This document shows, piece after piece, positions 1,369 through 22,653 of a stretch of 23,612 nucleotides of DNA. Within the stretch, counting starts at the first letter, position 1. Each line of letters starts with the position of its first letter. The position numbers and the translations under genes are program-made. The notes below the pieces were generated by a model. The model was given only the letters and a program-made list of their open reading frames with translations. It was not told where the DNA came from and ran no database searches. This DNA is from a virus (Duplodnaviria; Heunggongvirae; Uroviricota; Caudoviricetes): IMG/VR virus record IMGVR_UViG_2728369591_000007. The stretch is one strand, 5' to 3'.

Positions 1369-1444
1369 GCCGATATAGCTCAGTTGGTAGAGCAGCGCAT
1401 TCGTAATGCGAAGGTCGTAGGTTCGACTCCTATTATCGGCACCA
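1369..1444 (+). tRNA. thrW: tRNA-Thr, anticodon CGT, CCA encoded
   Basis: 76 nt GCCGATATAGCTCAGTTGGTAGAGCAGCGCATTCGTAATGCGAAGGTCGTAGGTTCGACTCCTATTATCGGCACCA; perfect 7-bp acceptor stem GCCGATA/TATCGGC; anticodon loop cattCGTaatg; T-arm GGTTCGACTCC; an integrase gene follows directly. Confidence 0.93.
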
Positions 1445-1461
1445 TTCAAACATCTCCCCAA

Positions 1462-1607
1462 GTCTACTAAAGTCTTTCAAAACCCCTTATAATCCGCGTA
1501 TTAAAGCCCCGTTCGTCTTTTGACGTCTACTAAAGTCCCTCAAAATCTACGGTCAGATGGGGGTACTTATGGGGGTATTTGCTGTTCGGTTTAGTGGAGG
1601 TACCCCC
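1462..1607. repeat. Candidate integrase arm-type binding sites between tRNA and int
   Basis: Direct repeats GTCTACTAAAGTCTTTCAAAAC (1462-1483) and GTCTACTAAAGTCCCTCAAAAT (1525-1546); GGGGGTA at 1559-1565 and 1571-1577, with an inverted TACCCCC at 1601-1607 overlapping the int RBS; a related TTTACTAAAGTA lies just after the int stop at 2849-2860. Confidence 0.5.
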
Positions 1608-1609
1608 AA

Positions 1610-2824
1610 GTGAAACTCAATGCCCGTCAAATAGACACAGCCAAGCCAAAAGAGAAGGCTTACAAGCTGGCCGATGGTGGCGGTTTGTATCTCTTGGTAA
1701 AACCTAATGGAGGTAAATACTGGCGACTTAAATATCGTGTAGCTGGTAAAGAGAAGCTATTGGCACTAGGTGTGTATCCTGAGGTTACTTTAGCCGATGC
1801 TCGGGCAAAACGTGAAGATGCGAAAAGAGGTATCGCTGGTGGTATCGATCCGATGGAAGCGAAACGAGAGGAAAAGATTGCCCGGGAAACGCAGTTAAAC
1901 AACACCTTCAAAGATATTGCCCTTGAGTGGCACAGCAGCAAATTAAAAAAATGGTCTGCTGGTTATGCTTCAGACATCCTCGAAGCCTTCAACAAAGATG
2001 TGTTCCCTTACATTGGCAAAAAACCAATCGCCGAAATCAAACCACTTGAACTTCTGAATGTGCTGCGGCGCATCGAGGGGCGCGGTGCGACAGAAAAAGC
2101 CAAAAAAGTGAGGCAGCGGTGCGGGGAAGTTTTCCGCTATGCAATAGTCACTGGTCGCGCAGAGTATAACCCTGCACCAGACCTTACTAGCGCGATGCAA
2201 GGCCATGAATCTAATCATTACCCTTTCCTTACGACCAAAGAATTACCTGATTTTTTCAAGGCATTGTCCAGTTACTCAGGAAGCGCATTGGTTGTTATGG
2301 CGGCTCGTCTACTGATTATCACCGGCTTGCGAACTGGCGAACTACGTGGCGCATTATGGGATGAAATTGATTTCAACAAGGCTATATGGGAGATACCCGC
2401 TTCACGTATGAAAATGCGGCGGCCTCATATTGTGCCATTGTCTGAGCAGGCTCTTTCGCTTATTGGGAAGATTAGAGAAATAACAGGCAATTACCCTCTT
2501 ATGTTTCCCGGGCGCAATGATCCAAGGAAAACAATGAGTGAGGCCAGCATAAACCAAGTGTTTAAGCGCATTGGCTACGCTGGACGTGTAACTGGTCATG
2601 GGTTCCGACACACTATGAGCACGATTTTGCATGAGCAGGGCTATAACACCGCGTGGATAGAAACGCAGCTCGCTCACGTTGATAAGAACTCAATTCGTGG
2701 CACATACAACCATGCGCAATATCTGGATGGACGGCGGGAGATGCTTCAATGGTATGCCGACTATATGGATTCTCTCGAGCATGGCGGAAATGTGGTGCAT
2801 ATGGTGTTTGAAAAACACGCATGA
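1610..2824 (+). CDS. P4-type tyrosine integrase (site-specific recombinase), 404 aa, GTG start
   Basis: Adjacent to tRNA; N-terminal arm-binding-like region (LYLLVKPNGGKYWRLKYR...); C-terminal catalytic motifs HGFRHT and LAHVDKNSIRGTYNH with the tyrosine; RBS GGAGG 9 nt upstream of GTG. Confidence 0.9.
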   Translation: MKLNARQIDTAKPKEKAYKLADGGGLYLLVKPNGGKYWRLKYRVAGKEKLLALGVYPEVTLADARAKREDAKRGIAGGIDPMEAKREEKIARETQLNNTFKDIALEWHSSKLKKWSAGYASDILEAFNKDVFPYIGKKPIAEIKPLELLNVLRRIEGRGATEKAKKVRQRCGEVFRYAIVTGRAEYNPAPDLTSAMQGHESNHYPFLTTKELPDFFKALSSYSGSALVVMAARLLIITGLRTGELRGALWDEIDFNKAIWEIPASRMKMRRPHIVPLSEQALSLIGKIREITGNYPLMFPGRNDPRKTMSEASINQVFKRIGYAGRVTGHGFRHTMSTILHEQGYNTAWIETQLAHVDKNSIRGTYNHAQYLDGRREMLQWYADYMDSLEHGGNVVHMVFEKHA

Positions 2825-3133
2825 AACAACTGGACAAGTATACAGAGGTTTACTAAAGTATAGGGGAGTAGATTGATAAAAACTCACAGAGGATTGCTAT
2901 TTAACAGTTAGCCCTGGAGAAGGGCAATCGCTCTTTTATAAACGAAGGTGTATTGAGCCTTCTACGCTGCTGAAAAGCGGAATGTTCTTTAACAGGCTTT
3001 GGCGCTGACAAAGCGCAATTGTTCTTTAAAACTACTGGATGTCACGCCTAATAGCGTGATCCTGCCGAAATGCAGGGTAGCTCTACCCTTGTGGAGCAAA
3101 CAAACCAAAACAATCTGACTATCTTTTATAAAA

Positions 3134-3162
3134 GACCGCAATATGTTTTTCATATTGTGGTC
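3134..3162 (+). promoter_or_regulatory. 12-bp inverted repeat with 5-nt T loop upstream of alpA (operator or weak terminator)
   Basis: GACCGCAATATG-TTTTT-CATATTGTGGTC, one G/A mismatch between arms; located about 90 bp upstream of the alpA start. Confidence 0.35.
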
Positions 3163-3251
3163 TTTGGCGTATTCGACATTTGACGCAAATAAAACTCTCG
3201 CCATTCGTTGCAGGAGGGGGTTATTGCGTCATTAGTACAGGATATTAATAA

Positions 3252-3455
3252 ATGGCTAATTACAATTCATTAATTCGTCTCTCTGAAGTTCAAAGGCGAA
3301 CTGGTTATAGCAAAGCATGGATTTATCGTCTTATTAGTCAGGGGAGGTTCCCTAAACAGGTAAAAATTGGAAGTCGGGCAATTGCTTTTGTTGAGTCTGA
3401 AATAGATGAATGGATTGAGAAGTGTATATTAGAATCTAGAGACGAGGTGGCCTGA
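3252..3455 (+). CDS. alpA: AlpA-family DNA-binding transcriptional regulator (prophage excisionase-like), 67 aa
   Basis: Translation MANYNSLIRLSEVQRRTGYSKAWIYRLISQGRFPKQVKIGSRAIAFVESEIDEWIEK is a typical AlpA-like HTH; positioned right after the integrase. Confidence 0.8.
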   Translation: MANYNSLIRLSEVQRRTGYSKAWIYRLISQGRFPKQVKIGSRAIAFVESEIDEWIEKCILESRDEVA

Positions 3456-3886
3456 TGGAAAAGAAAAACCGCCCATTACAGGCGGCTAATTCAGATATTC
3501 GCGTATCTGATATTACGCCCCTTACAAAATCCCTTCAAGCACCAAAGCGCACACCGAAAAAGCATCGTGCCCGAGTCTATATGCTGCGTACTGGTATAGA
3601 GGGATGGACAGAAAATGACATTCTTCGCTACTGCCGTCTGTCTTCTGGTCGTAACTATGCAACAGAGTTAGAACGCCAGCTTGGAATCACTCTGGAGCGT
3701 ATCGACGAAAAGAATCCTGATGGTATCGGAACACACCTTCGCTACCGTTTCTCCTGCCGTGGTGATGTTCTGAAAGTGATCACTCATGTTAACCATCTTG
3801 CGAACATAAATGATCACAACGGACTTTCTCAGCAGGAAATTGCCGACATTCTGAAACTCTACCCGAACGCGTTTAACGCCGCCTAA
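3455..3886 (+). CDS. hypothetical protein, 143 aa
   Basis: ORF start overlaps the alpA stop (TGATG); good RBS GAGGTGG; protein-like composition; no family recognised. Confidence 0.6.
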   Translation: MEKKNRPLQAANSDIRVSDITPLTKSLQAPKRTPKKHRARVYMLRTGIEGWTENDILRYCRLSSGRNYATELERQLGITLERIDEKNPDGIGTHLRYRFSCRGDVLKVITHVNHLANINDHNGLSQQEIADILKLYPNAFNAA

Positions 3887-3898
3887 CGGAGACTGAAA

Positions 3899-4732
3899 AT
3901 GAACATCGAAAAAAGCAGATTAATTTCTGAGGCCGCCCCTCATCTGAACGCCTCTCTGGGCACAATTAACGGTAATGAATTTGCCGCAATTGTCCCGGTT
4001 ATTCCTGGTCATATCGGTGGGCGTGAAACCAATATTGTTAGCGCAAAAGCGTTACACAAAGCGTTGGGCGTGGGAAAAGACTTCTCTACATGGATCACTG
4101 ATCGCATCTCTGAATATGACTTCACCATTGGGCACGATTACTCAGTCCATAAAACAATTTCCCCAAATTTGGGGAAAAGCCCGAATGGCGCGGCTTACAG
4201 CAAGATAAAGCACTCTGGCAGACCCGGCAAAGACTATCTGTTAAGTGTCGGAATGGCGAAAGAACTGGCAATGATCGAACGCAATGATCAGGGTCGCGCT
4301 ATCCGCCGTTATTTCATCCAGTGCGAGGAAGAATTACAGCGTAGCGTTCCTGAAATCGCCGCCCGCTATCGTCGCCAGCTAAAAGCCCGTCTCAGTGCCG
4401 CAAACAACTTTAAGCCAATGTGCGATGCGCTGAATATGGCCCGTGCCGAGATTGGTAAAACGACGCAGCAACACCACTACACAAACGAGAGCAATATGAT
4501 TTCTCGTATCGTTCTTGGTGGGCTAACTGCTAAGCAGTGGGCGCGGATAAATGGCTATTCTGGCGAACCTCGCGACCATATGAACGCAGAACAGCTTGAG
4601 CACCTCTCATATCTCGAAAGCACCAATATCACGTTAATTGATATGGGCATGGAATATGAGCAGCGCAAAGGAGAACTCACCCGCCTGTCGCAACGCTGGC
4701 TCGCCAAGCGTCTGGAGGCGCTCAATGTCTAA
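3899..4732 (+). CDS. phage antirepressor-like protein (AntA/AntB-type N-terminal domain), 277 aa
   Basis: Motifs SAKALHKALGVGKDFSTWITDRISEYDF and DYLLSVGMAKELAMIERNDQGRAIRRYFIQCEEEL resemble the antirepressor family as I remember it; RBS GGAG 7 nt upstream. Confidence 0.6.
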   Translation: MNIEKSRLISEAAPHLNASLGTINGNEFAAIVPVIPGHIGGRETNIVSAKALHKALGVGKDFSTWITDRISEYDFTIGHDYSVHKTISPNLGKSPNGAAYSKIKHSGRPGKDYLLSVGMAKELAMIERNDQGRAIRRYFIQCEEELQRSVPEIAARYRRQLKARLSAANNFKPMCDALNMARAEIGKTTQQHHYTNESNMISRIVLGGLTAKQWARINGYSGEPRDHMNAEQLEHLSYLESTNITLIDMGMEYEQRKGELTRLSQRWLAKRLEALNV

Positions 4733-4904
4733 GCCAACAGGAACACCACAACCACAAAAACGCTACAAAGATGCCCACGGAGCACTCGTTACTGTCGAAA
4801 GCGTGTCTCACAACCGAGTGACGTTTTATCGCGACGGGTATCAATCGCCATGCGTACAACCGCTGGCGCGTTTCATGAAGGAGTTCGCGGAGGTTAACCA
4901 ATGA
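4725..4904 (+). CDS. hypothetical small protein, 59 aa
   Basis: ATG at 4725 preceded by GGAGG; overlaps the stop of the upstream gene by 8 bp; sequence MSKPTGTPQPQKRYKDAHGALVTVESVSHNRVTFYRDGYQSPCVQPLARFMKEFAEVNQ. Confidence 0.55.
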   Translation: MSKPTGTPQPQKRYKDAHGALVTVESVSHNRVTFYRDGYQSPCVQPLARFMKEFAEVNQ

Positions 4905-5338
4905 TACCCGTCCAGAAGAAGACATTTTCACTGGCTGGCATGTCGCCAAAATCCAGAAATATGACGGCAAAGTCAGGCATTAATACAGCAGATACAAGCA
5001 AAGTTTATCATTTGCTGGTGGTCGGAACGGATGCCTTAACCATACCAGAAATCTCGGGCGATGATATTAGCATTGAGAAGGTCAGCGGCTGCGCCAGAAA
5101 ATTTCTGGTCGTAGATGATGTCTTCCGCTCGTGTAGTGACTCCACAAAAACATTCGTCCACGCGCGTGACGTTAACGAAATGAGCGCGATGTACTGTGCT
5201 TCTGGTTCTTCCAATAGTGAGTTTTCGGAGTCCATAAAAAAGAGCTTGCCGTTATGCGGCAACACGGTTTATGGTTATAAGGCACCTCATAAAACGGGTG
5301 CCGGGTTTCGCAGCCCGGAAATGTACGAGGCGACACAT

Positions 5339-5360
5339 GACGCGCCGAGCGTCTTTTTTT
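5339..5360 (+). terminator. Candidate intrinsic terminator (short GC hairpin plus T7 run)
   Basis: GACGC-GCCGA-GCGTC followed by TTTTTTT. Confidence 0.5.
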
Positions 5361-5377
5361 GTGCCGTTAGCCAGACT

Positions 5378-5406
5378 CACACTTTTTTCAGTGATGTGGT
5401 TATAAT
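5378..5406 (+). promoter_or_regulatory. Candidate sigma70 promoter (perfect -10 TATAAT at 5401-5406, weak -35)
   Basis: TATAAT directly downstream of the terminator and upstream of a structured leader and the RBS-led ORF at 5563; the -35 match is poor, so the call is tentative. Confidence 0.3.
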
Positions 5407-5562
5407 CCGCGTCGCTTGCAAAATTATGGTGGGCTGGACAGGGCAGCCGAAAGGCTGGCCGGTTTCCTTGTACGCCGGTACTGCGAACTCTGTTCAGTCC
5501 ACCACCAGCGAGTTTCGCAGCTCCGGTGGTGGGAAGAATTCCCAGTACAAGGAGGCTGCCAC

Positions 5563-5757
5563 ATGCTGGCTACTACCCCTACCCAAAAACCGCAATTTAT
5601 CTGGATTATCGCCGCAGTTCGCCGCGATTGCCCGACAATTACCGCCAAAATTCATCATATTGCTGCCGAGTCTGAACGCGATGCTCGCCGTTCTCTGGTG
5701 CGCGATCACGTCTGCTTTTTTGCTGGTCGTATCCGCATGGAGGTGGCACATGATTAA
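5563..5757 (+). CDS. hypothetical small protein, 64 aa (first gene of the early operon)
   Basis: Strong RBS AGGAGG 7 nt upstream of ATG; translation MLATTPTQKPQFIWIIAAVRRDCPTITAKIHHIAAESERDARRSLVRDHVCFFAGRIRMEVAHD; stop overlaps the next start. Confidence 0.6.
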   Translation: MLATTPTQKPQFIWIIAAVRRDCPTITAKIHHIAAESERDARRSLVRDHVCFFAGRIRMEVAHD

Positions 5758-5968
5758 AACCTACGATGTGCATATGGATCCCCTCGAACGCACAAGCCAG
5801 ATCATCACACTGACAGAAGTGATTAACGACATTCTGGTGAGCAACTCTCCCTCACGAGACGAAAGACTGAAGGCGTTACTCGCGATATTGGATCTCGCCG
5901 TTCGTGACGTTCATTTCCTGCTGGAAGGTGGCGAAATGCCAGGAAAAACGGGGGCAACCAATGAATAA
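5750..5968 (+). CDS. hypothetical small protein, 72 aa
   Basis: ATG at 5750 preceded by GGAGG at spacing 7; translation MIKTYDVHMDPLERTSQIITLTEVINDILVSNSPSRDERLKALLAILDLAVRDVHFLLEGGEMPGKTGATNE; 8-bp overlap with both the previous and the next gene. Confidence 0.6.
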   Translation: MIKTYDVHMDPLERTSQIITLTEVINDILVSNSPSRDERLKALLAILDLAVRDVHFLLEGGEMPGKTGATNE

Positions 5969-6155
5969 CTCAATTAATGCCCCTCGACTTACGTCCGCAC
6001 TTCAATTAATCGAGCAAGCAGCGGCTGTCCTGGTTGCTGTCAGTCTTTCGGCTGAAGAAATGGACGCTGCTGATGTCGTGGATGCGATTAAAGCGTGCTC
6101 ATCTTTGGTTAACGATGCTCGTGCAGAGCTGGTAATTCTTGGTGGTGAAAAATGA
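5961..6155 (+). CDS. hypothetical small protein, 64 aa
   Basis: Internal ATG of the 5904 ORF chosen because of the ATGAATAA overlap with the upstream stop; translation MNNSINAPRLTSALQLIEQAAAVLVAVSLSAEEMDAADVVDAIKACSSLVNDARAELVILGGEK. Confidence 0.55.
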   Translation: MNNSINAPRLTSALQLIEQAAAVLVAVSLSAEEMDAADVVDAIKACSSLVNDARAELVILGGEK

Positions 6156-6415
6156 ATATCAACTTAATTTATCGTCATCCGTGTGAGCTGGAAATTGAAT
6201 CATTGCTGAGCCGTGAAGAGCCATATCCAGACACATTCACTCTTGCAGATCGCACGACTGAACGGCTTACCAGAGCGCGCACAGGTCTGGTTCATGTGAT
6301 GAATGAGATTCTTCCATCGGTGGGAGGGGAACAGGCGACAGTAATCACTAGCTGGCTACAAAAAGTTACCTCTCTGATAGATATCAGTTTAATCGATGCG
6401 GAGAGTGCGAAATGA
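6152..6415 (+). CDS. hypothetical protein, 87 aa
   Basis: ATGA start/stop overlap with the upstream gene (translational coupling); protein-like sequence. Confidence 0.6.
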   Translation: MNINLIYRHPCELEIESLLSREEPYPDTFTLADRTTERLTRARTGLVHVMNEILPSVGGEQATVITSWLQKVTSLIDISLIDAESAK

Positions 6416-6633
6416 CCAACATCCAGCTCATTGAAGCACAATGTCGCATCGAACAGGTTCAGACTGTTTTAGGGTTCTGGCTTGAAGGGGCCAGCCCCAG
6501 CAACAGAGACAAGTTAATGATTGGCGCGGTTATGTCACTGCTCAATGGCGTACCAGAAGCTATTCAGGAAGCAGACGAATTGTTGGGCAAATATGAGTTA
6601 CAGAATCATTCAGGCGAGGCGAAACATGAATAA
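6412..6633 (+). CDS. hypothetical protein, 73 aa
   Basis: ATGA overlap with the upstream gene; protein-like sequence. Confidence 0.6.
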   Translation: MTNIQLIEAQCRIEQVQTVLGFWLEGASPSNRDKLMIGAVMSLLNGVPEAIQEADELLGKYELQNHSGEAKHE

Positions 6634-7228
6634 TTTCTTAACTTTCCATGCAGAAGCAACGCCTGACGGCGTAAACATCATGTACCGCAGCAACGATGGC
6701 ATGACAGAACGCGTTGAGGCCGTCTCATATATTGATGCCGTAAATCGTCTGGATGCCGGGGATTATGACGATAAACCAGATGAAGGTATGTCAATACATC
6801 TCGCTATAGCCGATGGCGGCAACCAGGGATATTTCGATTACACATCACAGCATAACGTCATTATGTGGAGATGGCTGATCGCAACAGTATTCATGCTGGA
6901 AATGAGAGAGGAAAACGGCACTGTCAGCATCATTGATGATACTGGCAATCCTTCCGAAGTGGCTGTTTATTCCAACGGCATCGTCGCCATGCCGCTGTAT
7001 CCAGTAGCAGAGCGCCTCGCTATGGCAAACAACATTGAGGGCGCGATGATAGAACGTTTTGGCATCGAGTCTGGCACAGAACGCGCCATCATTTTCTACA
7101 GAGCCATGATGGATGTGGAACAAGGAGCACTGACTCCATTTGGTCGTGAAACGCTTGCTGAACTTCACAACAGCTTTATAGCTGAACTGAATGAAAACGG
7201 CATGCCAGCGGAACCAGTGACGCACTGA
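6626..7228 (+). CDS. hypothetical protein, 200 aa
   Basis: Start ATG at 6626 (MNNFLTFHAEATPDG...) preceded by GAGG; 8-bp overlap with the upstream stop. The longer track ORF from 6521 was trimmed to this start. Confidence 0.6.
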   Translation: MNNFLTFHAEATPDGVNIMYRSNDGMTERVEAVSYIDAVNRLDAGDYDDKPDEGMSIHLAIADGGNQGYFDYTSQHNVIMWRWLIATVFMLEMREENGTVSIIDDTGNPSEVAVYSNGIVAMPLYPVAERLAMANNIEGAMIERFGIESGTERAIIFYRAMMDVEQGALTPFGRETLAELHNSFIAELNENGMPAEPVTH

Positions 7229-7238
7229 GGATGGAACC

Positions 7239-7580
7239 ATGATTACTAAAAATTTCCGACTGAATGCGCTGGCAAATAAGTATGCGTCGGCACTGTATAA
7301 CCACATTACCTCCACCAGCGGCGGGGACTATTTCATGGTTGATGCGGACGGCGAGGCCGTCCGTGTGGAAATCGTCAATGGAGTAAAAGGCGTTCGCAGC
7401 CTGATCGATAGCTACACACTGGCAGCCATGAAAGTGTTCTACCCGCAGTGGGAAACCGTGGGGATCGAGCTTCTTGATCGTTGCGTCACTAAGGACGGAT
7501 TGACTGACGTCGGGCGTGAGATATGGCAAAGCATGGTTAATGACATGGGCGCAACTGTAGCGGGAGGTTCTCATGCGTGA
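7239..7580 (+). CDS. hypothetical protein, 113 aa
   Basis: RBS GAGG upstream; same operon and orientation as its neighbours. Confidence 0.6.
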   Translation: MITKNFRLNALANKYASALYNHITSTSGGDYFMVDADGEAVRVEIVNGVKGVRSLIDSYTLAAMKVFYPQWETVGIELLDRCVTKDGLTDVGREIWQSMVNDMGATVAGGSHA

Positions 7581-7944
7581 AAATGCAGAAATGGCGCTTA
7601 GCTCCGCAATCGGAGAGCAGGTGGCAAAGATTGCTGGTGCTGTGTGGATTCATAACCTTCATTCTACTGGTGAAGAGAAAATGGCAATTCAGACGCCAGA
7701 GGGACGCACCATTACTACATCTCTGAAGCCGTCAGATGTTTGTGATCTGATTTGCGCATTCATGTACCCAGCAATGAGGACTGCCCACGGCGATAAGTGG
7801 AAACTTGCGACAACCGCTGAATTTGATATGTGGCTAAACAATGATGGCATGCTGACTGATTACGGAATAACCAAGTGGCAGATGCTGGTTAGCCATATCG
7901 CAAACGCTATAGACCACGTGGGGTACGGTGATGCGAAACATTGA
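7573..7944 (+). CDS. hypothetical protein, 123 aa
   Basis: 8-bp overlap with the upstream gene; its own stop overlaps the primase start. Confidence 0.6.
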   Translation: MRENAEMALSSAIGEQVAKIAGAVWIHNLHSTGEEKMAIQTPEGRTITTSLKPSDVCDLICAFMYPAMRTAHGDKWKLATTAEFDMWLNNDGMLTDYGITKWQMLVSHIANAIDHVGYGDAKH

Positions 7945-10687: not shown

Positions 10688-10712
10688 GATTCTTCATGTG
10701 CGTAGAAAAGGT

Positions 10713-10823
10713 GTTGGTTCAGTTGGTTCAGTTGGTTCAATTTGTAAAGAGTATTGTTTTATAAGGATTTTATTCTTTTTATTGAACCAACACTGAACCA
10801 ACAACACGGTATTTTGAACCAAC
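10713..10823. repeat. Iteron cluster 1 (candidate ori): 3 tandem GTTGGTTCA, AT-rich spacer, 3 inverted TGAACCAAC
   Basis: GTTGGTTCA at 10713-10721, 10722-10730, 10731-10739; TGAACCAAC at 10783-10791, 10794-10802, 10815-10823; begins 26 bp after the primase stop. Confidence 0.7.
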
Positions 10824-11143
10824 ACAATGTGACTGAATTGATGCGCACAACACCTGGCTGGCATCAGAGAGTGTTTTACGAGACTTTCGTAAAATCCTGT
10901 GTACAAGGGCGTGACGTTTTTGAAAGTGAGCACTACGAAATTTTCGTAGTTCAAAAAACAGCCTCTGAGAAGTTGTTATGCCTGTTCAGCAAACCATCCG
11001 CATAGCTGATCGCGAATCAAATTACCAATGGAGCCAGAAGCAAGGGCAGAACTGAAAAGCGCCTGCCGTGAAGAGTAATGCGACACCATAAATATAGTTT
11101 TTAGAGTCCATAAAAAACCTGTCAAAACCTGACACACAGAACG

Positions 11144-11177
11144 ATGCCACCAGCTACTGAGCGGTGGCATTTTTTTG
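11144..11177 (+). terminator. Candidate intrinsic terminator ending the early/replication operon
   Basis: ATGCCACC-(11-nt loop)-GGTGGCAT followed by TTTTTTT. Confidence 0.6.
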
Positions 11178-11271
11178 TGCTATTTGTTTCATATTTTGCA
11201 ATTACGATGATGAATATTGCGATTTGTGAAACTATAATAACTGTTGTTTTATACAGTTCTAAGGGGGCGTT

Positions 11272-11433
11272 ATGGCTATTTCAGTAAAGCCGGTATTGAT
11301 AAGTGAGAAGCAAATGGAAGCGATAAAGAAAATTCAGGAAGAGCAGCGTAAAAAATCAGGAATTGGAGTAGCGCCAACTCTGCATGAAATTGCACGAGGG
11401 TTAATAGATAAGGCGCTGGCAGGCTGTATGTGA
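11272..11433 (+). CDS. small protein, 53 aa, possible ribbon-helix-helix-like regulator (speculative)
   Basis: Below the track's length cutoff; ATG at 11272 with SD AAGGGGG upstream; TATAAT at 11233-11238; translation MAISVKPVLISEKQMEAIKKIQEEQRKKSGIGVAPTLHEIARGLIDKALAGCM. Confidence 0.45.
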   Translation: MAISVKPVLISEKQMEAIKKIQEEQRKKSGIGVAPTLHEIARGLIDKALAGCM

Positions 11434-11449
11434 AAATGGATGGCATCGC

Positions 11450-16618: not shown

Positions 16619-16768
16619 ACGCTCTAACTAACAAAACCATAATAGCCAAGGACGGCATACTGATATTGAGCCAACTATCAAAATTCCATATCACATTACG
16701 AGCCTGTGGCTTACATTCGCTTACAGTGATGATAATTTATAACCACGCAATTCTTAGGTGAGATTATC

Positions 16769-17467
16769 ATGATTAAAAATCTTCTTTTAATATTATCCCT
16801 GTCATTATTGGCTGGATGCGTACAAAAACCGTTAGTAACGGTCAATGCTTTATCTTCCGGGCAATCTGTCGGTAAGAAGTTCTTGATCATCCCCGCAAGC
16901 CAAGAACTTTGGAACACCAAACAGATTGAATACACTCAAATAGCTACGGTAGTAGCCGCCAGTTTATCAAGCCAAGGATATACACAAGTTAAAGATGAAA
17001 AATTGGCTGACCAGGTAATTCTCTTGAACTTTTTGAGAAGCGGGGCCATTTCAAATACTCGTAATGTAACCATCCCAATATACGGGCAAACTGGTGTGAG
17101 CTCAGCAACAACGTACGGAAACTCGAACACCACGTTCAATAGTTATGGTGGTGGCTACGGTACAGCTAATACCACTGGAACGGCAACAACAGTTTATACG
17201 CCTACTTATGGAATTACTGGCGCGTATAACACAACTGTGACGGACACGTTCTACGGCGCAGGGGTGATACTCCAGTCGTTTGATGCCAAGGCCTATCTCA
17301 ATAATAGGCAGATTAATATGTTATGGAAAGTTGGTAGCTCAGTCGTCTCGCAACAGTCTGATGGAATTGCTGATTACAAGGGGTTGGCGAGAATAGCCGC
17401 TAGCTATGCCGGGAAAAATACAGAAGGTGATATAACTTTTAATGTTGACCCTAAAGCACCAAATTAA
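16769..17467 (+). CDS. lipoprotein, 232 aa, Thr/Gly/Tyr-rich low-complexity mature region
   Basis: Signal peptide with lipobox MIKNLLLILSLSLLAGC; RBS AGGTGA at spacing 8; intrinsic terminator immediately downstream. Confidence 0.7.
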   Translation: MIKNLLLILSLSLLAGCVQKPLVTVNALSSGQSVGKKFLIIPASQELWNTKQIEYTQIATVVAASLSSQGYTQVKDEKLADQVILLNFLRSGAISNTRNVTIPIYGQTGVSSATTYGNSNTTFNSYGGGYGTANTTGTATTVYTPTYGITGAYNTTVTDTFYGAGVILQSFDAKAYLNNRQINMLWKVGSSVVSQQSDGIADYKGLARIAASYAGKNTEGDITFNVDPKAPN

Positions 17468-17473
17468 CTAATA

Positions 17474-17495
17474 AGCCCGGTACGCCGGGCATTTT
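17474..17495 (+). terminator. Intrinsic terminator after the lipoprotein gene
   Basis: GCCCGG-TACG-CCGGGC hairpin followed by ATTTTG. Confidence 0.6.
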
Positions 17496-17680
17496 GCCCC
17501 CTATTATTCATGAATCGCTTTTTCTAGAAGGTATGCGACAAACGTTAAGTGACATTGCCTACACATTCGGGGCGGGATTTCAAATCCGCTCCCAGTTGAT
17601 GGGGCCGTTACAGTACGCGCATATCCGCTTTATGTGAAACAGGAAGATTTTTCTGATATCACTGCCACAGCAAAACACCA

Positions 17681-17703
17681 ATTTCGAGACAAGTACGCGC
17701 GCG
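17681..17703. repeat. CG-alternating 23-bp repeat, copy A
   Basis: ATTTCGAGACAAGTACGCGCGCG; followed by the 20-bp palindrome GTTGCAAAAAATTTTGCAAC at 17714-17733. Confidence 0.6.
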
Positions 17704-17966
17704 AGGGGTATCAGTTGCAAAAAATTTTGCAACTACGTCCGACCAATACACACACGATGGCGGGGGATACCATAAAACTGTTCTCTACATGAGACAGAGT
17801 GGTGGTGATGTGTTGATTATCGGCCTATATGCGCACAGGACGCGCTATGACAATGTTTTATGCGGGTACACCAATCACATGTATCTGGTGTGATAAATCG
17901 CGTTACATGACCTCTCATGTTGTGCTGGTGGTTATCACGACGTTCTGAATCTGGCTTTTGTCTGAT

Positions 17967-17989
17967 ATTTTGCGACAAGTACGCGCGCG
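17967..17989. repeat. CG-alternating 23-bp repeat, copy B
   Basis: ATTTTGCGACAAGTACGCGCGCG; shares the upstream TCTGATAT with copy A. Confidence 0.6.
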
Positions 17990-18326
17990 TAACATCGAAA
18001 TTATCGGATGGCGTATGTTGCTGGCAAGATAAAGTCGGCGTAATACAAAGGCGTTACTTGATAGCAGCAAGATTACAACAATGGTTGTTGAATTTGAGCG
18101 ATGTAAGGAATTGATTTAGGGAGGCGCTGATGGCTAAAAAGTTCCACTACCAGCGGATGAATGCGCCAGCGATGGCCGTTTGGTAGTAAAAGAGGAGCCA
18201 TTCCTCAATCAGTTGAATACATTATGCCAACTAAATGGGTGGGGGCACTGTGTGGGTATTCAGCGGTGACGGTATTTTTTAAGCCAAGGACTATCCGTAG
18301 CAGGGGGACTCATTTTGAAATATTTA

Positions 18327-18764
18327 TCATATGTAACTTATTATTTTAGATAAAGATTTCCAGTTAAAGAAAAAAGTTATCATTGATATAATCAAATATG
18401 CCCCTGCGAGTAGCAGGGCATAATAATCCAGAGGCAGATTGCTGACAACAGGGGCAAACATCGAGATCATTGCTAATAGGCAGGCTGTGATCAGCGTAGT
18501 TCCTGTATCAAAAAGCCCCTCAATAATGCCTTTTAGTACTCCGTTACTTTTTAGAGCGCCTACAATTCCCTTTGAACTATCAAAGCTACTTAGCATGGTG
18601 ACTGATGCCAAAACAAAACCAAAGAGAACTCCAGAAATAGTTGAAAGAGCACCAGCAGCCGAAATGACAGCATTGTGATCTAGGTCGTGTAAAAAATGGG
18701 CACCAGCAATAGCCATAGCTAGAGCAAACAATGACTTGGCAGCAAACAATTTCCGAGAACTCAT
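18327..18764 (-). CDS. small integral membrane protein, 145 aa, about four predicted transmembrane helices (candidate effector)
   Basis: Translation MSSRKLFAAKSLFALAMAIAGAHFL...LLAGAYLIISMITFFFNWKSLSKIISYI is dominated by hydrophobic segments; RBS AGGA 8 nt upstream; 12 bp downstream of the 361-aa gene on the same strand; AT-rich by eye. Confidence 0.7.
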   Translation of the reverse strand: MSSRKLFAAKSLFALAMAIAGAHFLHDLDHNAVISAAGALSTISGVLFGFVLASVTMLSSFDSSKGIVGALKSNGVLKGIIEGLFDTGTTLITACLLAMISMFAPVVSNLPLDYYALLLAGAYLIISMITFFFNWKSLSKIISYI

Positions 18765-18776
18765 AATGTATTCCTG

Positions 18777-19862
18777 TTACGTTTGACTAACCAAATAGTA
18801 CTGGGTTAGATACCTAAGGTTGTCATTCTTTGCTTGTAGCATAGCATTTTTAACGTCAGTATCGGTCGGATACCCATCTGCTTGGATAGGCACCATCTTC
18901 TTTACCGTAAGAACTTCGTCTACAAGACTTTTCTTCTTTTTATCGCCCTGAGCAACAACATTTGCTTTCTCAAAAGTTAAACGACCATCACCACCAGGGA
19001 ACTTTTCTAGCATCTCCTTAAGGCTTTTTTTAACGTCATCCTCAAGCCATCCCTTTGCTTTTCTTTTTAATGGAGAATGTCCGCGTAACGAAATAGTCAG
19101 GTGGCTTGAACTGGTGCCTCTGATCATCTCAATCATCTGATTCGCGAACATTCCATCGAGTTGATACTGTGCGGCATTGAAGTTTCTTGGGATGGCCACA
19201 GAAATCTCGCAGCTTCTTAGATTGGATCCAGTTTCGAGTAGTTCTTTGATGCTTTCTTCTTTCCAAATGGCTTCAAAAGAAACAGGGACTCCGCGATCAC
19301 TGGAGTTGAAAAGAAGGAAGGCTAAGTCACTATGGCGTGGACCTAAATGATTTAAAGACAATACTAGAATGTCTGTCTGAGGATAATAAATAAAGTATGT
19401 ACGTTCTGAAAGAGTCTTTGCCCCGGCTAGAGGGATTTTCTCTTCCACCCACTCTTTATCTGTAATATATGCCAGTGTTGCGCTTTTTCTTCTTCGAGAC
19501 ATGAATCCGAAGTAGGAGCCATCCTCGGGTGAGATGTCTAGAAAATGAATTTTAAGTTCTCTTTCACCAAAGTCTGCATAGTGGGTCATCTTGAAGTCTT
19601 TAGAACACCGATCATAGAGATTTTTAAAGGCCTCTGCGGTTAACCCCTTGTTACTAGTGCGAATATTCTCAGAGCTTGTGTAAAAGCCCACCCTTACAGA
19701 TTTCAAACTTTGATCTTTTGGTGCCACAGTCATTTGAGCTCCATTGTACTCTGCGATAGTTTTTGCACACCTTGAAATCAAAATCTCCATGTCAGTCACG
19801 AGAAAATAACTATGGATGAAACCCATCAAAGGCATTGAATACAGGTGGCTTTTGAGAATCAT
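18777..19862 (-). CDS. hypothetical soluble protein, 361 aa (possibly about 316 aa from an internal start); candidate sensor partner of the membrane protein
   Basis: Long minus-strand ORF with protein-like composition; an alternative ATG at MTVAPK has a better SD (GGAG); no family recognised; AT-rich by eye. Confidence 0.7.
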   Translation of the reverse strand: MILKSHLYSMPLMGFIHSYFLVTDMEILISRCAKTIAEYNGAQMTVAPKDQSLKSVRVGFYTSSENIRTSNKGLTAEAFKNLYDRCSKDFKMTHYADFGERELKIHFLDISPEDGSYFGFMSRRRKSATLAYITDKEWVEEKIPLAGAKTLSERTYFIYYPQTDILVLSLNHLGPRHSDLAFLLFNSSDRGVPVSFEAIWKEESIKELLETGSNLRSCEISVAIPRNFNAAQYQLDGMFANQMIEMIRGTSSSHLTISLRGHSPLKRKAKGWLEDDVKKSLKEMLEKFPGGDGRLTFEKANVVAQGDKKKKSLVDEVLTVKKMVPIQADGYPTDTDVKNAMLQAKNDNLRYLTQYYLVSQT

Positions 19863-20213
19863 CCTAACCTGGTGACGGTGGTTCGCATATCCTGATGGAT
19901 GATCAGTGATTAATCAATGCGCCAAGCAGATGTGTCTATGTGTTTGTTAATCATTGCATGACAGTAGATCGACATGGGAGATCACGTTATATAGTTGAAT
20001 TGTTAGGATATCCATGCACCGATCAACTGACTAGGCTGATGTGCTTTTTAGCAGGTGCCATATAGTAGTTAGGCGGTTCTGTGAAATGATTACTGTTCCA
20101 GCATAACTGCGGCATAAAGCGGTGCTATATAAGCTATTTGCTGGCGGATTTAGTCTTCACCGTTCATATATGTAGTGACTATTTGACAGAGTGTTAGTTC
20201 ACGGACACTTTTT

Positions 20214-20313
20214 GTTGGTTCAAAATGAGTTGATGTTGGTTCAATATTTTAGAAAAAACACAATAAAAACAACGCTCTTTACAAATTGAACCAACTGAAC
20301 CAACTGAACCAAC
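20214..20313. repeat. Iteron cluster 2 (crr-like second site), mirror image of cluster 1
   Basis: GTTGGTTCA at 20214-20222 and 20235-20243; TGAACCAAC tandem at 20287-20295, 20296-20304, 20305-20313; the spacer shares ATTTGTAAAGAG..TTGTTTT with cluster 1 in reverse complement. Confidence 0.7.
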
Positions 20314-20349
20314 ACCTTTTTGCTTATCTATATAATCTGAGAGGCAGAA

Positions 20350-20631
20350 ATGATAAGGGACAGGAAAGCTGAAGAGCTGGAGTCAAAAGGGCTATACCGG
20401 AGAGCTGCCGCACGATGGATGGAAGTCATGCTGTTATGCAGCGAGGACGATGATCGGGAATGGATAAAGCGCCGCCGTGAAACGTGTCTGGAGAACGTGA
20501 AGCGCCCGCCCGTGAAGGTTGAGGAATTTGGCGACCTGCATAAAGCTGTTACCGAAACGCAACACCGCATGGGGATAGCGCAACCGAACGGTAACGCCTT
20601 CCGGTTAAATGGCGGCAAGAGGCAAAGGTAG
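20350..20631 (+). CDS. PerC-like small transcriptional regulator (tentative), 93 aa
   Basis: N-terminus MIRDRKAEELESKGLYRRAAARWMEVM resembles PerC-family proteins from prophage-like elements as I remember them; TATAAT at 20331-20336 and GAGG RBS upstream. Confidence 0.45.
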   Translation: MIRDRKAEELESKGLYRRAAARWMEVMLLCSEDDDREWIKRRRETCLENVKRPPVKVEEFGDLHKAVTETQHRMGIAQPNGNAFRLNGGKRQR

Positions 20632-20672
20632 ACCACCAGAGGGAAATCATCCTCTGGCTGGCGGTTTCTGGT

Positions 20673-20697
20673 ATTTCGGAACAAGTACGCGCGCGCG
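20673..20697. repeat. CG-alternating repeat, copy C
   Basis: ATTTCGGAACAAGTACGCGCGCGCG; contains the 14-bp palindrome TACGCGCGCGCGTA. Confidence 0.6.
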
Positions 20698-20928
20698 TAG
20701 CACCCAATCGGTGAGGAAATAGCGGCGACCTGAATGGTCAAAATCACAACGCAGCTATCCCCGTAAGCAGCGCTTAACGGAATAGCAGTAACCTGAATCC
20801 AGTGGGGAGGGGGTAGTCAAATCTCTACAGCCCTGACTATCCGGGACTGCCCGCCCCATCGTTTTTTTATACCCGCGAAAAATGAAATTTAATCCGGGCG
20901 TGTTTCATCCTTCCAGAGGGTATGACGT

Positions 20929-21114
20929 ATGACACCACGCGAAATAGCCTTATTGACCATCGCCAAACTTGAGCACGGAGGCCACCAGCTTACACAGGCA
21001 GATCAACGGGAGATAGAACGATCAGTTAATGCCGATATAGCCCGGCGCGACAGGTTCCGCGAAATGATGCGAGCACCTGCCTACCAGTGGAAGAAGCCAG
21101 CGCCGCGCAGGTAG
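20929..21114 (+). CDS. hypothetical small protein, 61 aa
   Basis: RBS GAGGG upstream; translation MTPREIALLTIAKLEHGGHQLTQADQREIERSVNADIARRDRFREMMRAPAYQWKKPAPRR. Confidence 0.5.
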   Translation: MTPREIALLTIAKLEHGGHQLTQADQREIERSVNADIARRDRFREMMRAPAYQWKKPAPRR

Positions 21115-21234
21115 ATATGGGATTATTCCACATGTAACTTATGCGTATTAAGCAAATTTCCTTTATTCACCTTTACAGAATTGTGAGTACGTCAGTATCG
21201 TTATCCTTCCGATTCGCATTTATTCAGGATTTGC

Positions 21235-21777
21235 ATGTACCAGCTAAAGATAACCATCCGAGACAGCAAACCACCTATATGGCGGCGTGTGCTGGTTCCA
21301 GAGCAAATCCCCTTTAGTAAACTTCATGCCGTGATCCAGTTAGCTTTTGGCTGGAATGACGAACACCTGTATATGTTCGAGAAAGGGCGTAAAGGTGATC
21401 CAGGTAGCGAGTATCGCGTATGGGGTGAGGATGAAAGCATGGGTAACGCGGCAATCACGCCACTATGGGCGGCGCTCCAGAATGAGGGTGACAAGCTGGT
21501 TTACACGTATGACTTTGGCGACTGGTGGGATTGCGTCATTGTGCTGGAGAAGCAAACACACGATACGAGTAATCAGCCCATTAGCTGCCTGCGTGGGAAA
21601 GGCACCACCCCGGCGGAAAACTCAGGCGGCTTGCATGGTTACAATGAATTGCTATTACAGGCCAGAGAGTCTGATAATCCTGAGCAGGCCGAGATCCACA
21701 ATTTCCTGATGCTGGATATTGAACGCCGGGTTTACGACCTGAGCCGCATCAACGACAGATTGCAGGCTATTAACTGA
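21235..21777 (+). CDS. pRiA4b ORF-3-like family protein, 180 aa
   Basis: Hallmark motifs YQLKITIRDSKPPIWRRVLVP...LHAVIQLAFGWNDEHLYMF and YTYDFGDWWDCVIVLE. Confidence 0.75.
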   Translation: MYQLKITIRDSKPPIWRRVLVPEQIPFSKLHAVIQLAFGWNDEHLYMFEKGRKGDPGSEYRVWGEDESMGNAAITPLWAALQNEGDKLVYTYDFGDWWDCVIVLEKQTHDTSNQPISCLRGKGTTPAENSGGLHGYNELLLQARESDNPEQAEIHNFLMLDIERRVYDLSRINDRLQAIN

Positions 21778-22129
21778 CCCGCATGTATTCACCTGATATT
21801 GCGTTGTCAGCGCCGCCAGTATCGCGCATAACAGCGCACTGACCGGGTAAACCGTAGCGCACGACCGTTGCGTTAGTATCACCGCCGCGCCGTATCTGGC
21901 GCGATTCATACACTGTCACCCGCTCAAGCAGTCCACCAGCAACCATGCTTTCCAGTGTGCGCCGGGTTGATTCGAGCTGGTGACGCTTATCGAACGACAC
22001 CATGCCATGAAGCAGGTAGGCCACACCCGACACATCGAACGGCGGCGCACCAATCTCACCAGTCACCCATTCGAGGTTATCCGGTTCAAAGTAGCTAAGT
22101 ATCTCTTTTTTGCGACTGGTCATTCTCAT
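21770..22129 (-). CDS. hypothetical protein, 119 aa (possible winged-helix-like)
   Basis: Protein-like composition; 3' end overlaps the 3' end of the ORF3-like gene by 8 bp in convergent orientation; weak RBS. Confidence 0.45.
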   Translation of the reverse strand: MRMTSRKKEILSYFEPDNLEWVTGEIGAPPFDVSGVAYLLHGMVSFDKRHQLESTRRTLESMVAGGLLERVTVYESRQIRRGGDTNATVVRYGLPGQCAVMRDTGGADNAISGEYMRVS

Positions 22130-22247
22130 GGCTGGCTGATTCCTTATTGTGGGATAGCACTATCATACAATAAGTGGGTTAAAGGGAGAGCGTTACCGCC
22201 TGATATGCTGTATGAATAACAACCAAATTTCAGGGGCGGAAAAAGAT

Positions 22248-22270
22248 ATGGGGGTACTTTTGGGGGTATC
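22248..22270. repeat. Second copy of the integrase-proximal GGGGGTA direct-repeat pair (candidate right-end arm sites)
   Basis: ATGGGGGTACTTTTGGGGGTATC matches ATGGGGGTACTTATGGGGGTATT at 1557-1579 with identical 12-bp spacing; TCCTATTATC, identical to tRNA positions 1428-1437, lies at 22331-22340. Confidence 0.5.
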
Positions 22271-22653
22271 TATAAAAAATGAACAATAAAAAAGGCAACA
22301 AAAACAAAGCTTATCGCCTATGTGTATTGTTCCTATTATCCCATTTAAATCAATAAGTTAGATAAGTGTGTGCCTAGATTTTCTTGCAGTTTGTCATTTG
22401 GGTACACACAGGGGACACAAAGCACAAAAGTGTGTACATTTGGTTTTGGTGTCCTCGTGTTTACTTCTTACCGTTGATATAAATTCACTTTCTTGTTGAC
22501 AAAAATTGTAAGCATGTCGAATGGCAATGTAGACATCGCTATTAGTTGTTTGGTAAGGTATTTATTGAGTGTAAACATAAAAACTTTATCAATATATGCT
22601 CAGACTGATGAGGTCAGTATTGATACTGATGTTTTCAAATTTTAGGCCATAAA

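Follow-up and report, generated by a model that had tools for sequence, protein, structure and literature searches.

A thrW satellite island of the EcCIMP1 family carries P22-type ejection genes in a slot shared with related islands

What kind of satellite carries phage ejection proteins and no recognizable gene for capsid-size redirection or terminase, and how might it be packaged and delivered? The question is raised by a 20.9-kb island at the tRNA-Thr gene thrW in the IMG/VR virus record IMGVR_UViG_2728369591_000007 (Caudoviricetes), a stretch of 23,612 nucleotides that we refer to as the window. Our analysis indicates that the island is very probably an intact member of the EcCIMP1 family, that is, of the satellites of phage-inducible chromosomal island (PICI) type that reside at thrW and have P22-like podoviruses (Lederbergvirus) as helpers. 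The element was already published as EcCIMP1 in January 2025, and the window copy is a variant of it with one cargo swap.

The window opens with proA (1-1254), followed by thrW, a tRNA-Thr (CGT) gene on the plus strand (1369-1444; ARAGORN; Rfam tRNA model, 71.8 bits) that is the integration target. A 10-bp direct repeat, TCCTATTATC, lies within the 3' end of the tRNA gene (1430-1439, plus strand; the attL core, called from sequence) and again at 22332-22341 (the attR core), and the two copies delimit an element of 20,902 bp, in agreement with the span of 1428-22340 proposed in an earlier note made from the letters of the window. On the attR side, the match to other Escherichia coli copies of the island stops at 22340-22361. 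Arm-like repeats of the form ATGGGGGTACTT(A/T)TGGGGGTAT lie just within both ends (1557-1578 and 22248-22269), the right arm-type repeat and attR core together occupying 22248-22341 (plus strand). Next to attL, the candidate arm-type integrase-binding region (1462-1578, plus strand) comprises two direct-repeat families, D17 (GTCTACTAAAGTC..TCAAAA at 1462-1482 and 1525-1545) and D14 (ATGGGGGTACTTATGGGGGTAT at 1557-1578, with its partner copy at 22248-22269 just inside attR), both of which are candidate arm sites of the integrase.

EcCIMP1 was described as a 19,963-bp PICI of E. coli MP1 inserted in tRNA-Thr between proA and yagU (Pick, Stadel and Raivio, ISME J 2025; PMC11773190; GenBank OR778291). 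Its att core was established from the sequenced circle junction (PMC11773190) and is identical to that of the window island. The window is 98.65% identical to the MP1 sequence over positions 1-18034 and 98.84% identical over 20191-22343 (2,153 bp), figures that take in 20.2 of the island's 20.9 kb, and the two elements share the proA-thrW site and the order of about 25 genes, including those for AlpA, AntA, the primase, a small open reading frame (ORF), gp14, gp7, gp20, a gp16 with a lytic transglycosylase (SLT) domain, a lipoprotein, PerC and PRiA4_ORF3. They differ in length (20,902 versus 19,963 bp), in that window positions 18035-20190 (minus strand) replace the 1.2-kb alpA_1 segment of EcCIMP1, and in the right flank, which is a vat/MarR island in MP1 and a 198-residue ORF plus IS1 at the window. 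The alpA_1 product is excisionase-like and can assist excision of the phage Kapi1, and it is dispensable for EcCIMP1 mobilization (PMC11773190), so that its absence here is compatible with EcCIMP1 membership.

The integration and induction genes are those of EcCIMP1. The integrase (1610-2824, plus strand) has the Pfam domains Arm-DNA-bind_3, Phage_int_M and Phage_integrase and is 42.5% identical to P4 Int (E=9e-107), as expected from the earlier call of a tRNA-adjacent P4-type integrase; the ratio of nonsynonymous to synonymous substitution rates (dN/dS) is 0.02 against MP1. The AlpA-family regulator (3252-3455, plus strand; PF05930, E=7e-20) differs from that of MP1 by one synonymous and no nonsynonymous substitution, the amino acid sequences being identical, and AlpA is the master activator of EcCIMP1 excision (PMC11773190). 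Downstream lie a conserved 143-residue protein without Pfam, PHROG or PADLOC match (3455-3886, plus strand), which occurs in most islands of the primase family described below with 55-98% amino acid identity in related loci, then an AntA/AntB-type antirepressor (3899-4732, plus strand; PF08346, E=3e-21) and a DUF4222 small protein (4725-4904, plus strand; RefSeq label of an identical gene; phrog_285 and phrog_1343). The Pfam assignments of AlpA and the antirepressor confirm how the earlier note had read these two genes. By the route for which the att site has been shown in EcCIMP1, the P4-family integrase would have placed the island in the 3' end of tRNA-Thr at TCCTATTATC. Lytic growth of a helper prophage would then fire the alpA promoter, AlpA would boost its own synthesis, and Int would excise and circularize the island, as was shown for EcCIMP1, which was excised and circularized only when the P22-like podovirus vB_EcoP_Kapi1 was induced and which required both alpA and int (PMC11773190). 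Kapi1 also transduces EcCIMP1 specifically (PMC11773190). The suggestion of a distinct, non-P4 satellite of a podovirus helper had thus already been published, with experimental proof for the 98.7%-identical EcCIMP1.

The window consists of E. coli DNA: each of the 5,426 complete E. coli genomes matched it in part, and for 41 of them the match covered at least 80% of its length, with about 99% identity; the full ejection module was present in 72 and at least 80% of the replication backbone in 355. The right-flank DNA (22362-23612), which holds the 198-residue ORF (22654-23250) and then an IS1 end, occurs in 254 of these genomes, and the intact island and this flank occur together in none of the collection. 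In the one such genome examined, E. coli 2 HS-C, the flank adjoins an internally deleted remnant of the island in which int, alpA and a truncated gene for the 143-residue protein are joined to a 61-residue ORF, PRiA4 and a 119-residue ORF. The thrW locus is a hot spot for tandem islands: strain CB209 has a frameshifted second integrase and dnd genes after the island (related locus L001, 25899-28336), and MP1 has the vat/MarR island with an integrase fragment after EcCIMP1 (L004, 2333-9548), a fragment with 86% identity to window 1428-1948, at the island's 5' end.

The ejection genes belong to an operon beginning with a conserved 53-residue ORF (11272-11433, plus strand). This protein had no match in Pfam, NCBIfam or the PDB sequences, including an alignment-profile search of the latter; its AlphaFold2 (AF2) single-sequence model (predicted local distance difference test (pLDDT) of 78) has an extended N terminus and two helices, a topology compatible with ribbon-helix-helix. 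Behind it stand homologues of P22 gene 14 (DUF2824; 11450-11911, plus strand; PF11039, E=1.5e-61; phrog_651), of the ejection protein gp7 (11905-12582, plus strand; PF25688 (P22_gp7), E=7e-73), of the ejection and periplasmic conduit protein gp20 (12582-13901, plus strand; PF16928 (Inj_translocase), E=4e-22) and of the ejection protein gp16 with an N-terminal SLT domain (13892-16618, plus strand; PF01464 at residues 17-119; phrog_770, E=2e-120), the last also matching the PHROG families 'lytic tail protein' and 'lytic tail fiber protein'. Amino acid identity to the Kapi1 proteins falls from 82% for the gp14 homologue (Kapi1_055) through 57% for gp7 to 25-26% for gp20 and gp16 (26% for gp20), and the nearest phage relatives of gp16, in Dewey, Huey, CUS-3 and HK620, are 46-52% identical. 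All four genes are under purifying selection, with dN/dS values of 0.09-0.43 for gp14 (from four to five substitutions only), 0.08-0.12 for gp7 (against MP1 and L003), 0.03-0.08 for gp20 and about 0.2 for gp16.

The same arrangement recurs well beyond thrW. A primase scan with one genome per species gave 66 Enterobacterales loci, which we viewed with 10-kb flanks; the attR of related thrW, argU and other islands falls outside these flanks. The 53-residue ORF was present in 31 of the 66 (43-100% amino acid identity), and in 26 of those 31 the next gene or genes, often overlapping its stop codon, encode a protein for the passage of DNA through the cell envelope. The occupants of this slot vary: about 12 loci have tape-measure proteins with a 108-residue ORF ahead of them, lytic tail or transglycosylase proteins stand in nine, a set of three internal-virion genes in three and the P22 ejection set in two, and one further locus has a baseplate-hub homologue. 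Slot-bearing relatives come from Klebsiella, Pluralibacter, Enterobacter, Leclercia, Pantoea and further genera (L092, L101, L129, L089, L099, L124, L141, L150, L104), and in related islands a DUF5681 protein often follows the tape-measure, lytic-tail, internal-virion or baseplate genes. Terminase, portal and coat genes were found in none of the 66 loci when the fetched DNA was searched by tblastn with Kapi1 TerS, TerL, portal and coat proteins (TerS and TerL being the small and large terminase subunits).

A search of IMG/VR viral contigs made with the single 53-residue protein returned 19 contigs, 16 of them with the ejection cassette, in at least four alleles on near-identical backbones; two alleles lack gp14 and gp7 and keep gp20 and gp16, the pair retained in every allele. 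P22-type ejection proteins thus stand behind the 53-residue ORF in the window and in at least 20 other loci, with at least four alleles. Other E. coli strains have backbone and module in the yicC-dinD interval, there with an unrelated integrase; both also occur in Leclercia adecarboxylata (83-89% amino acid identity), and in other Enterobacteriaceae with genes for single-stranded DNA-binding protein (SSB) and ProQ inserted after the primase; in L168-L171, positions 500-2400 encode SSB, a ProQ/FinO-like protein and a 329-residue protein between the primase and the 53-residue ORF. The earlier note had called these genes ejection-protein-like cargo. The resemblance to ejection proteins stood, and the gp14/gp7/gp20/gp16 set is complete and intact; the word cargo fits less well, because the fixed slot, the two chromosomal sites, the other genera and the purifying selection make a core module the better reading.

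It is highly improbable that the locus is instead a composite relic, a P4/PICI-like element lying beside a P22-like prophage fragment at thrW, static and with the ejection genes as decaying passengers. P22 integrates at thrW, a Serratia P22-like prophage has the block 14-7-20-16-lipoprotein in the same order, and both tandem islands at thrW and deleted remnants of the island exist, yet all 20.9 kb lie between the att repeats, and the circle whose junction was sequenced for EcCIMP1 includes the ejection genes. The module moreover stands behind the same small ORF at another site, with another integrase and in other genera, its four genes are intact with dN/dS of 0.03-0.43, and the closest phage gp16 is so distant, at 46-52% identity, as to argue against a recent capture. 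The distances of gp16 and gp20 from phage and helper proteins exclude a recent accidental capture or a prophage remnant, and a tandem prophage remnant is contradicted by the comparative data and the dN/dS values.

As a core module of an EcCIMP1-type satellite, the ejection genes may serve delivery. In P22, SieA exclusion targets gp16 and gp20 and is overcome by changes in them; these two proteins must be mutually cognate, gp7 is interchangeable, and complete heterologous ejection cassettes are incorporated into P22 virions and work there if their gp16 and gp20 are cognate (PMC10461980). Because the always-kept gp20 and gp16 are this exclusion-targeted, co-adapted pair (PMC10461980), we tentatively suggest, with rather less than even confidence, that EcCIMP1-type elements bring their own genome-delivery conduit, without capsid resizing or terminase retargeting. 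The operon led by the 53-residue ORF would express the island's own gp14, gp7, gp20 and SLT-gp16 for loading into helper procapsids, a step that we place slightly short of an even chance; at a similar level, the satellite ejection proteins would build the injection conduit of the transducing particle, with the lipoprotein as a superinfection-immunity candidate. If the conduit is satellite-specific, transducing particles could enter lysogens that exclude the helper.

The lipoprotein gene (16769-17467, plus strand; lipobox LLAGC) follows gene 16 and encodes a candidate exclusion factor. The protein has no Pfam or NCBIfam match and is a distant DUF4136 relative. In the Serratia P22-like prophage a homologue stands after gene 16 and before arc/tailspike, where P22 has sieA. 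The AF2 model of the island protein (pLDDT 87) combines an alpha/beta domain and a beta-hairpin of great length, and for it Foldseek returned the DUF4136 structure 4f54 and the decameric surface-exclusion lipoprotein TraT (probability 0.9; TM-score for TraT just 0.25), and the gene differs from that of MP1 by five synonymous and no nonsynonymous substitutions. It is a reasonable candidate for the protein behind the superinfection immunity that EcCIMP1 gives Kapi1 lysogens, and exclusion of rival phages would fit a TraT-like lipoprotein.

These properties also bear on a second explanation, in which the ejection block is anti-phage or anti-helper cargo that poisons the helper conduit or, with the lipoprotein, blocks incoming P22-like phages. 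P22 particles with non-cognate gp16 or gp20 are non-infectious (PMC10461980), and the island's gp20 and gp16 share only 25-26% identity with their Kapi1 counterparts, yet Kapi1 titres after induction were not lowered by EcCIMP1 (PMC11773190). That Kapi1 lysogens are more immune to superinfection when they carry EcCIMP1 (PMC11773190), that PICI immune genes sit downstream of pri (PMC11364771) and that the lipoprotein has a TraT-like architecture and occupies the sieA slot would suit an exclusion role, whereas a decoy needs no full co-adapted gp14-gp7-gp20-gp16 set under strong purifying selection, and the tape-measure proteins in the slot of relatives are hard to see as exclusion factors. We regard this explanation as unlikely, if not negligibly so.

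Packaging of an EcCIMP1-type island must draw on the helper's terminase and full-size heads, because the island has no terminase, capsid or size-redirection gene. The P22 headful is 104% of genome length (PMC8402733), and two island copies amount to 41.8 kb, near one headful for a P22-like phage of 39-42 kb, so that a size-redirection gene is not needed. In P22-like phages the pac site lies within the small-terminase gene, terS (PMC9611059, PMC8022706). Kapi1 TerS (L007, 18704-19132), identical to the protein in a 38,297-bp IMG/VR contig, has the Sf6 gene 1 protein as its best PDB match (3HEF, E=3.6e-92), and Kapi1 packaging specificity is therefore of Sf6 type and not of P22 type.

Two kinds of sequence in the island resemble such sites. 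Motif A, whose core GACAAGTACGCGCGCG had emerged as a three-copy repeat family (D2) before any phage comparison, matches ATTTTCGCGACAAGTACGCG inside the Kapi1 small-terminase gene and was observed three times, against 0.03 in shuffled windows. Copy 1 (ATTTCGAGACAAGTACGCGCGCG; 17681-17703, plus strand) matches a segment inside terS of the Sf6/HK620/Kapi1 type and agrees with a variant terS allele, AATTTAGAGACAAGTACGCG, at 19 of 20 positions; copy 2 (ATTTTGCGACAAGTACGCGCGCG; 17967-17989, plus strand) has a 14-nt exact match to Kapi1 terS; and copy 3 (ATTTCGGAACAAGTACGCGCGCG) lies at 20673-20695 (plus strand). The spacing of 286 bp between copies 1 and 2 is kept in L001-L003 and is 288 bp in MP1. 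Within terS, the segment GACAAGTACGCGAAG shows no synonymous variation over 80 related genes, and GA(A/G)GATTT is common to the segment of Sf6 type, GAGGATTTTCGCGACAAGTACG, and the pac site of P22, GAAGATTTATCTGAAGTCG, the TerS proteins being unrelated in sequence.

Motif B is a 22-mer with the consensus GAAG(A/G)TTT(A/T)TC(T/G)GNNNTCACTA, the best copies of which agree with the annotated P22 pac site GAAGATTTATCTGAAGTCGTTA in 18 of 22 nucleotides, a similarity expected by chance only 0.0014 times per 40 kb. In four diverged satellites (L117, L168-L170), motif A is accompanied by four to six clustered same-strand copies of motif B in otherwise unalignable non-coding DNA downstream of the module. 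In the window, a motif B (GAAGATTTTTCTGATATCACTG; 17643-17664, plus strand) resembles the P22 pac site, and a weak one (GAATGTTTTTGTGGAGTCACTA; 5134-5155, minus strand) has seven mismatches to it; alone, the latter is at chance level (about one hit expected per 40 kb), and a copy stands at the same place in MP1 and L002, there with six mismatches. We regard pac mimicry as the best, if putative, explanation of motifs A and B, and arrays of P22-type and Sf6-type sites would fit the recruitment of helper terminases of differing specificity. The helper terminase would thus fill full-size helper heads with the pac-like and terS-like motifs as candidate recognition sites; the transfer itself has been shown for EcCIMP1.

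Between the antirepressor region and the replication operon lies an RNA module (5282-5509) that the earlier note had overlooked. An isrK-family small RNA element (5282-5359, plus strand; Rfam RF01394, 69 bits, above the gathering score of 50) ends in an intrinsic terminator, a hairpin at 5339-5353 followed by a T-run. Next comes a C4-type antisense RNA, a candidate immunity RNA (5422-5509, plus strand; Rfam RF01695, 81 bits, above the gathering score of 45), with a predicted fold of -45.8 kcal/mol (z=-4.9) that exposes CCUUGUAC in a loop. The predicted target of this loop, GTACAAGGA (5545-5553, plus strand), complements it and overlaps the Shine-Dalgarno sequence of an Icd-like ORF, a host cell-division inhibitor (5563-5757, plus strand; NCBIfam phage_ICD_like, E=4e-20), in the manner of P1 immI; the supported pairing is 9 nt, an extended 15-nt target search having matched only the RNA gene itself. 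The Icd-like ORF would by analogy be the first gene under C4 control. The P4 CI RNA is taken as C4-type (the P1/P7 c4 family), and tblastn with the historical P4 'cI ORF' as query gave a match at 5414-5733. On the model of P1/P7 c4-icd and P4 CI RNA, quiescence would result when the C4 loop CCUUGUAC pairs with GTACAAGG on the icd-like ribosome-binding site and so silences the downstream replication operon.

In the E. coli records examined, RefSeq mislabels this C4/isrK region as a gene for an "ash family protein". The 355-residue ORF concerned (4901-5968) overlaps the isrK and C4 RNA genes exactly, has PHROG 'repressor' matches at residues 106-233 and a dN/dS of 0.59, is interrupted or carries indels in further copies of the island, and in MP1 is labelled a pseudogene. 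It is most probably an artefact of annotation; the ash family would seem to have been erected on conserved RNA genes, the same having occurred in the past with the P4 'cI' ORF. A pair of short segments ahead of isrK (5146-5241) is found again, at 71% and 91% identity, in the non-coding DNA (10891-11117) that separates the iterons from the terminator before the delivery operon, and may represent shared regulatory sites.

Between 5961 and 10687, neighbouring genes either overlap by 4-14 nt or stand 10 nt apart. The series starts with six small early genes, translationally coupled (5961-7944, plus strand; 64, 87, 73, 200, 113 and 123 residues), whose PHROG matches are all of unknown function, and ends with a primase-helicase (7931-10687, plus strand; Pfam Zn_Ribbon_Prim, Toprim_3 and DUF927; dN/dS 0.09-0.22). 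Over its first 340 residues this protein has 34% identity to residues 5-339 of P4 alpha (E=9e-42), and the DUF927 helicase half has no match to P4 alpha; of the earlier description as a coupled operon ending in an alpha-type primase-helicase, the coupling and the primase half therefore stand, and the helicase half is unlike that of P4. The two iteron sites proposed at the same time are borne out by 11 exact copies of GTTGGTTCA in two inverted clusters (0.23 expected; none of 100 shuffles reached 11). Cluster 1, a candidate ori directly 3' of the primase gene (10713-10823), has three GTTGGTTCA and three inverted copies; cluster 2 (20214-20313), 9.4 kb away, is an inverted copy of cluster 1 and resembles crr, the two forming an inverted repeat (I1) of 55 nt with 96% complementarity. 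An intrinsic terminator-like hairpin (11153-11175, plus strand) closes the early and ori region. The primase-helicase would copy the circle from the GTTGGTTCA iterons 3' of its gene, with the second cluster acting as in the ori/crr pair of P4.

Several observations weigh against reading the island as an active EcCIMP1-type satellite with the life cycle set out above. Transduction of EcCIMP1 by Kapi1 is inefficient, at about 5e3 particles per ml, Kapi1 titres are unchanged by EcCIMP1, and a Kapi1-like prophage is present in only 2 of 21 EcCIMP1 strains (PMC11773190), so that the natural helper may be another phage. The mobilization experiments concern the MP1 copy alone, and the window copy is without the reverse-strand alpA_1. 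Internally deleted remnants of the island occur in about 250 E. coli genomes, and some copies are therefore decaying. The steps suggested for quiescence, replication, the packaging mechanism and delivery are modelled on other systems. At the level of individual features, the motif B of the window is weak, with mismatches to the P22 pac site at 6 of 22 positions, a mapped Sf6-type pac site was not found in the accessible literature (which did not cover the primary work on the Sf6 small terminase and pac), and the TM-score of the match between the lipoprotein and TraT is low.

The remaining genes lie towards the right end. A variable cargo cassette (18035-20190, minus strand), delimited by blastn breakpoints against MP1 and standing in place of the 1.2-kb alpA_1 segment, encodes a 145-residue multi-pass membrane protein (18327-18764) and a 318-residue DUF6731 protein (18777-19733); the cassette matches phrog_8552 and phrog_7651, and the 318-residue protein has DUF6731 homologues. 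PADLOC had no match for seven unassigned island proteins, for gp16 or for the 198-residue flank ORF. A defence role for the cargo genes was not adopted, given no PADLOC match and a 318-residue protein that is only a member of the DUF6731 family; the pair could be an undescribed defence or exclusion pair. Beyond the cassette lies a PerC-family regulator (20350-20631, plus strand; phrog_994, E=7e-38) that is one amino acid off EcCIMP1_025 and 99.6% identical in nucleotides to MP1; EcCIMP1_025 represses LEE1 in Citrobacter rodentium (PMC11773190). The right-end genes (20929-22129) are a 61-residue ORF (20929-21114, plus strand), PRiA4_ORF3 (21235-21777, plus strand; PF07929, E=1e-42) and a 119-residue ORF (21770-22129, minus strand), all three being 99.7-100% identical to MP1.

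Alone, the window island is a further variant of EcCIMP1 with different cargo. Neither the packaging of EcCIMP1 nor the reason for its "DNA transfer/DUF2824" genes was settled by the published work, which placed the element in an unvalidated 'Type C' class (PMC11773190). That description has nothing on the delivery slot or how widely it occurs, on the pac-like arrays, on the immunity module formed by the C4/isrK RNAs and icd, or on the candidate exclusion lipoprotein. In the literature on satellites with ejection or tape-measure proteins, we found for enterobacterial islands only one sentence, in Pick et al., and a December 2025 mycobacterial preprint states that tape-measure proteins are absent from satellites except in one proposed PLE case (PMC12822802). 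SatelliteFinder forbids tail and holin profiles in PICIs, and more than 6,000 "Type C" PICIs were set aside (PMC10085698); because tail profiles are forbidden, the delivery-slot pattern may have been filtered from earlier surveys. If satellites do routinely supply injection conduits, this would be a new category of helper exploitation, an own conduit would tie satellite biology to superinfection exclusion, and satellite detection that rejects tail-like genes would have a blind spot.

Among known systems, P4 is the first with which the island invites comparison. Both have a P4-family tyrosine integrase at a tRNA gene, an AlpA/Vis-like small helix-turn-helix protein, a C4-type antisense RNA for immunity ahead of an early operon of leftward type with a primase-helicase gene at its end, and two separated iteron sites like ori and crr. 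The island differs in having no sid, delta, psu, epsilon or cos, in its DUF927 helicase domain, in carrying virion ejection proteins, in being about twice the size of P4, and in its helper, which is a headful-packaging podovirus rather than a cos-packaging P2-like myovirus. The absence of sid/delta/psu-like and small-terminase-like genes, raised in the earlier note, withstood a sensitive search: Pfam, PHROGs and tblastn detected no Sid, Delta, Psu, Epsilon, Vis, TerS, TerL, portal or coat in the window. With all 13 P4 proteins as tblastn queries, only Int, the alpha N terminus and the 'cI ORF' (RNA) region matched, the best E-values for sid-delta-psu/epsilon (0.12-0.8) being noise; and there was neither a match to the 19-nt P2/P4 cos ends at up to four mismatches nor a short blastn hit (E limit 1) to the 300-bp junction. 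Membership of P4 was rejected on these grounds. The idea that the island is nonetheless a P4-family member with a P2-like myovirus helper, its sid, delta and psu diverged past recognition, can point to the P4-type integrase (42.5%), the alpha-like primase domain (34%), the C4-type RNA with its P4 'cI ORF' match and the dual iteron sites resembling ori/crr; it is scarcely credible when set against the missing Sid, Delta, Psu, Epsilon, Vis and cos, a helicase half that is not of P4 type, a length of 20.9 kb that is nearly twice that of P4, and a podovirus as the proven helper of the 98.7%-identical EcCIMP1.

The EcCIMP1-type island resembles two phage systems in single modules. It shares with the late segment 14-7-20-16-sieA of P22-like phages (P22, Sf6, HK620, CUS-3, Kapi1) the gene order and families, the next gene at the place of sieA, and mosaic gp20/gp16 alleles of the kind described for the phages (PMC10461980), and it differs in that its block stands alone behind a small ORF, without coat, portal, terminase, tail or lysis genes, and is far in sequence from any sequenced phage. 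A P22-like prophage (Lederbergvirus) was rejected as an identification, the locus having only the 14-7-20-16 segment and no complete late operon, lysis genes or lambdoid early region. With the immI region of P1/P7 (c4-icd-ant) it shares a C4 RNA followed by icd with a ribosome-binding site complementary to the C4 loop; in the island, however, the antirepressor gene is upstream of C4 and not downstream of icd, and the replication operon follows icd.

A further class for comparison is that of the classical Gram-negative PICIs (EcCICFT073 and EcCIEDL933; Fillol-Salom et al. 2018). Capsid-forming PICIs were rejected, as a capsid, portal, protease, head-tail connectors and TerL of its own were not detected here and no capsid, portal or terminase gene was found in the 66 related loci. 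From the Gram-negative PICIs, the island differs in being larger (20.9 kb), in lacking rpp/terS or a capsid-morphogenesis gene (no packaging-hijack gene of these kinds had a Pfam or PHROG match among the ORFs scanned), and in carrying phage virion genes of a type forbidden in SatelliteFinder (PMC10085698); where PICIs are taken to have no structural or lysis genes, it has gp14, gp7, gp20 and gp16, and no holin, tail or capsid genes were found in it. What it shares with them is the int-alpA-pri layout, with the three genes co-oriented and iterons, here the candidate origin, 3' of the replication gene, together with a PerC-like accessory gene and helper-induced alpA as the master switch.

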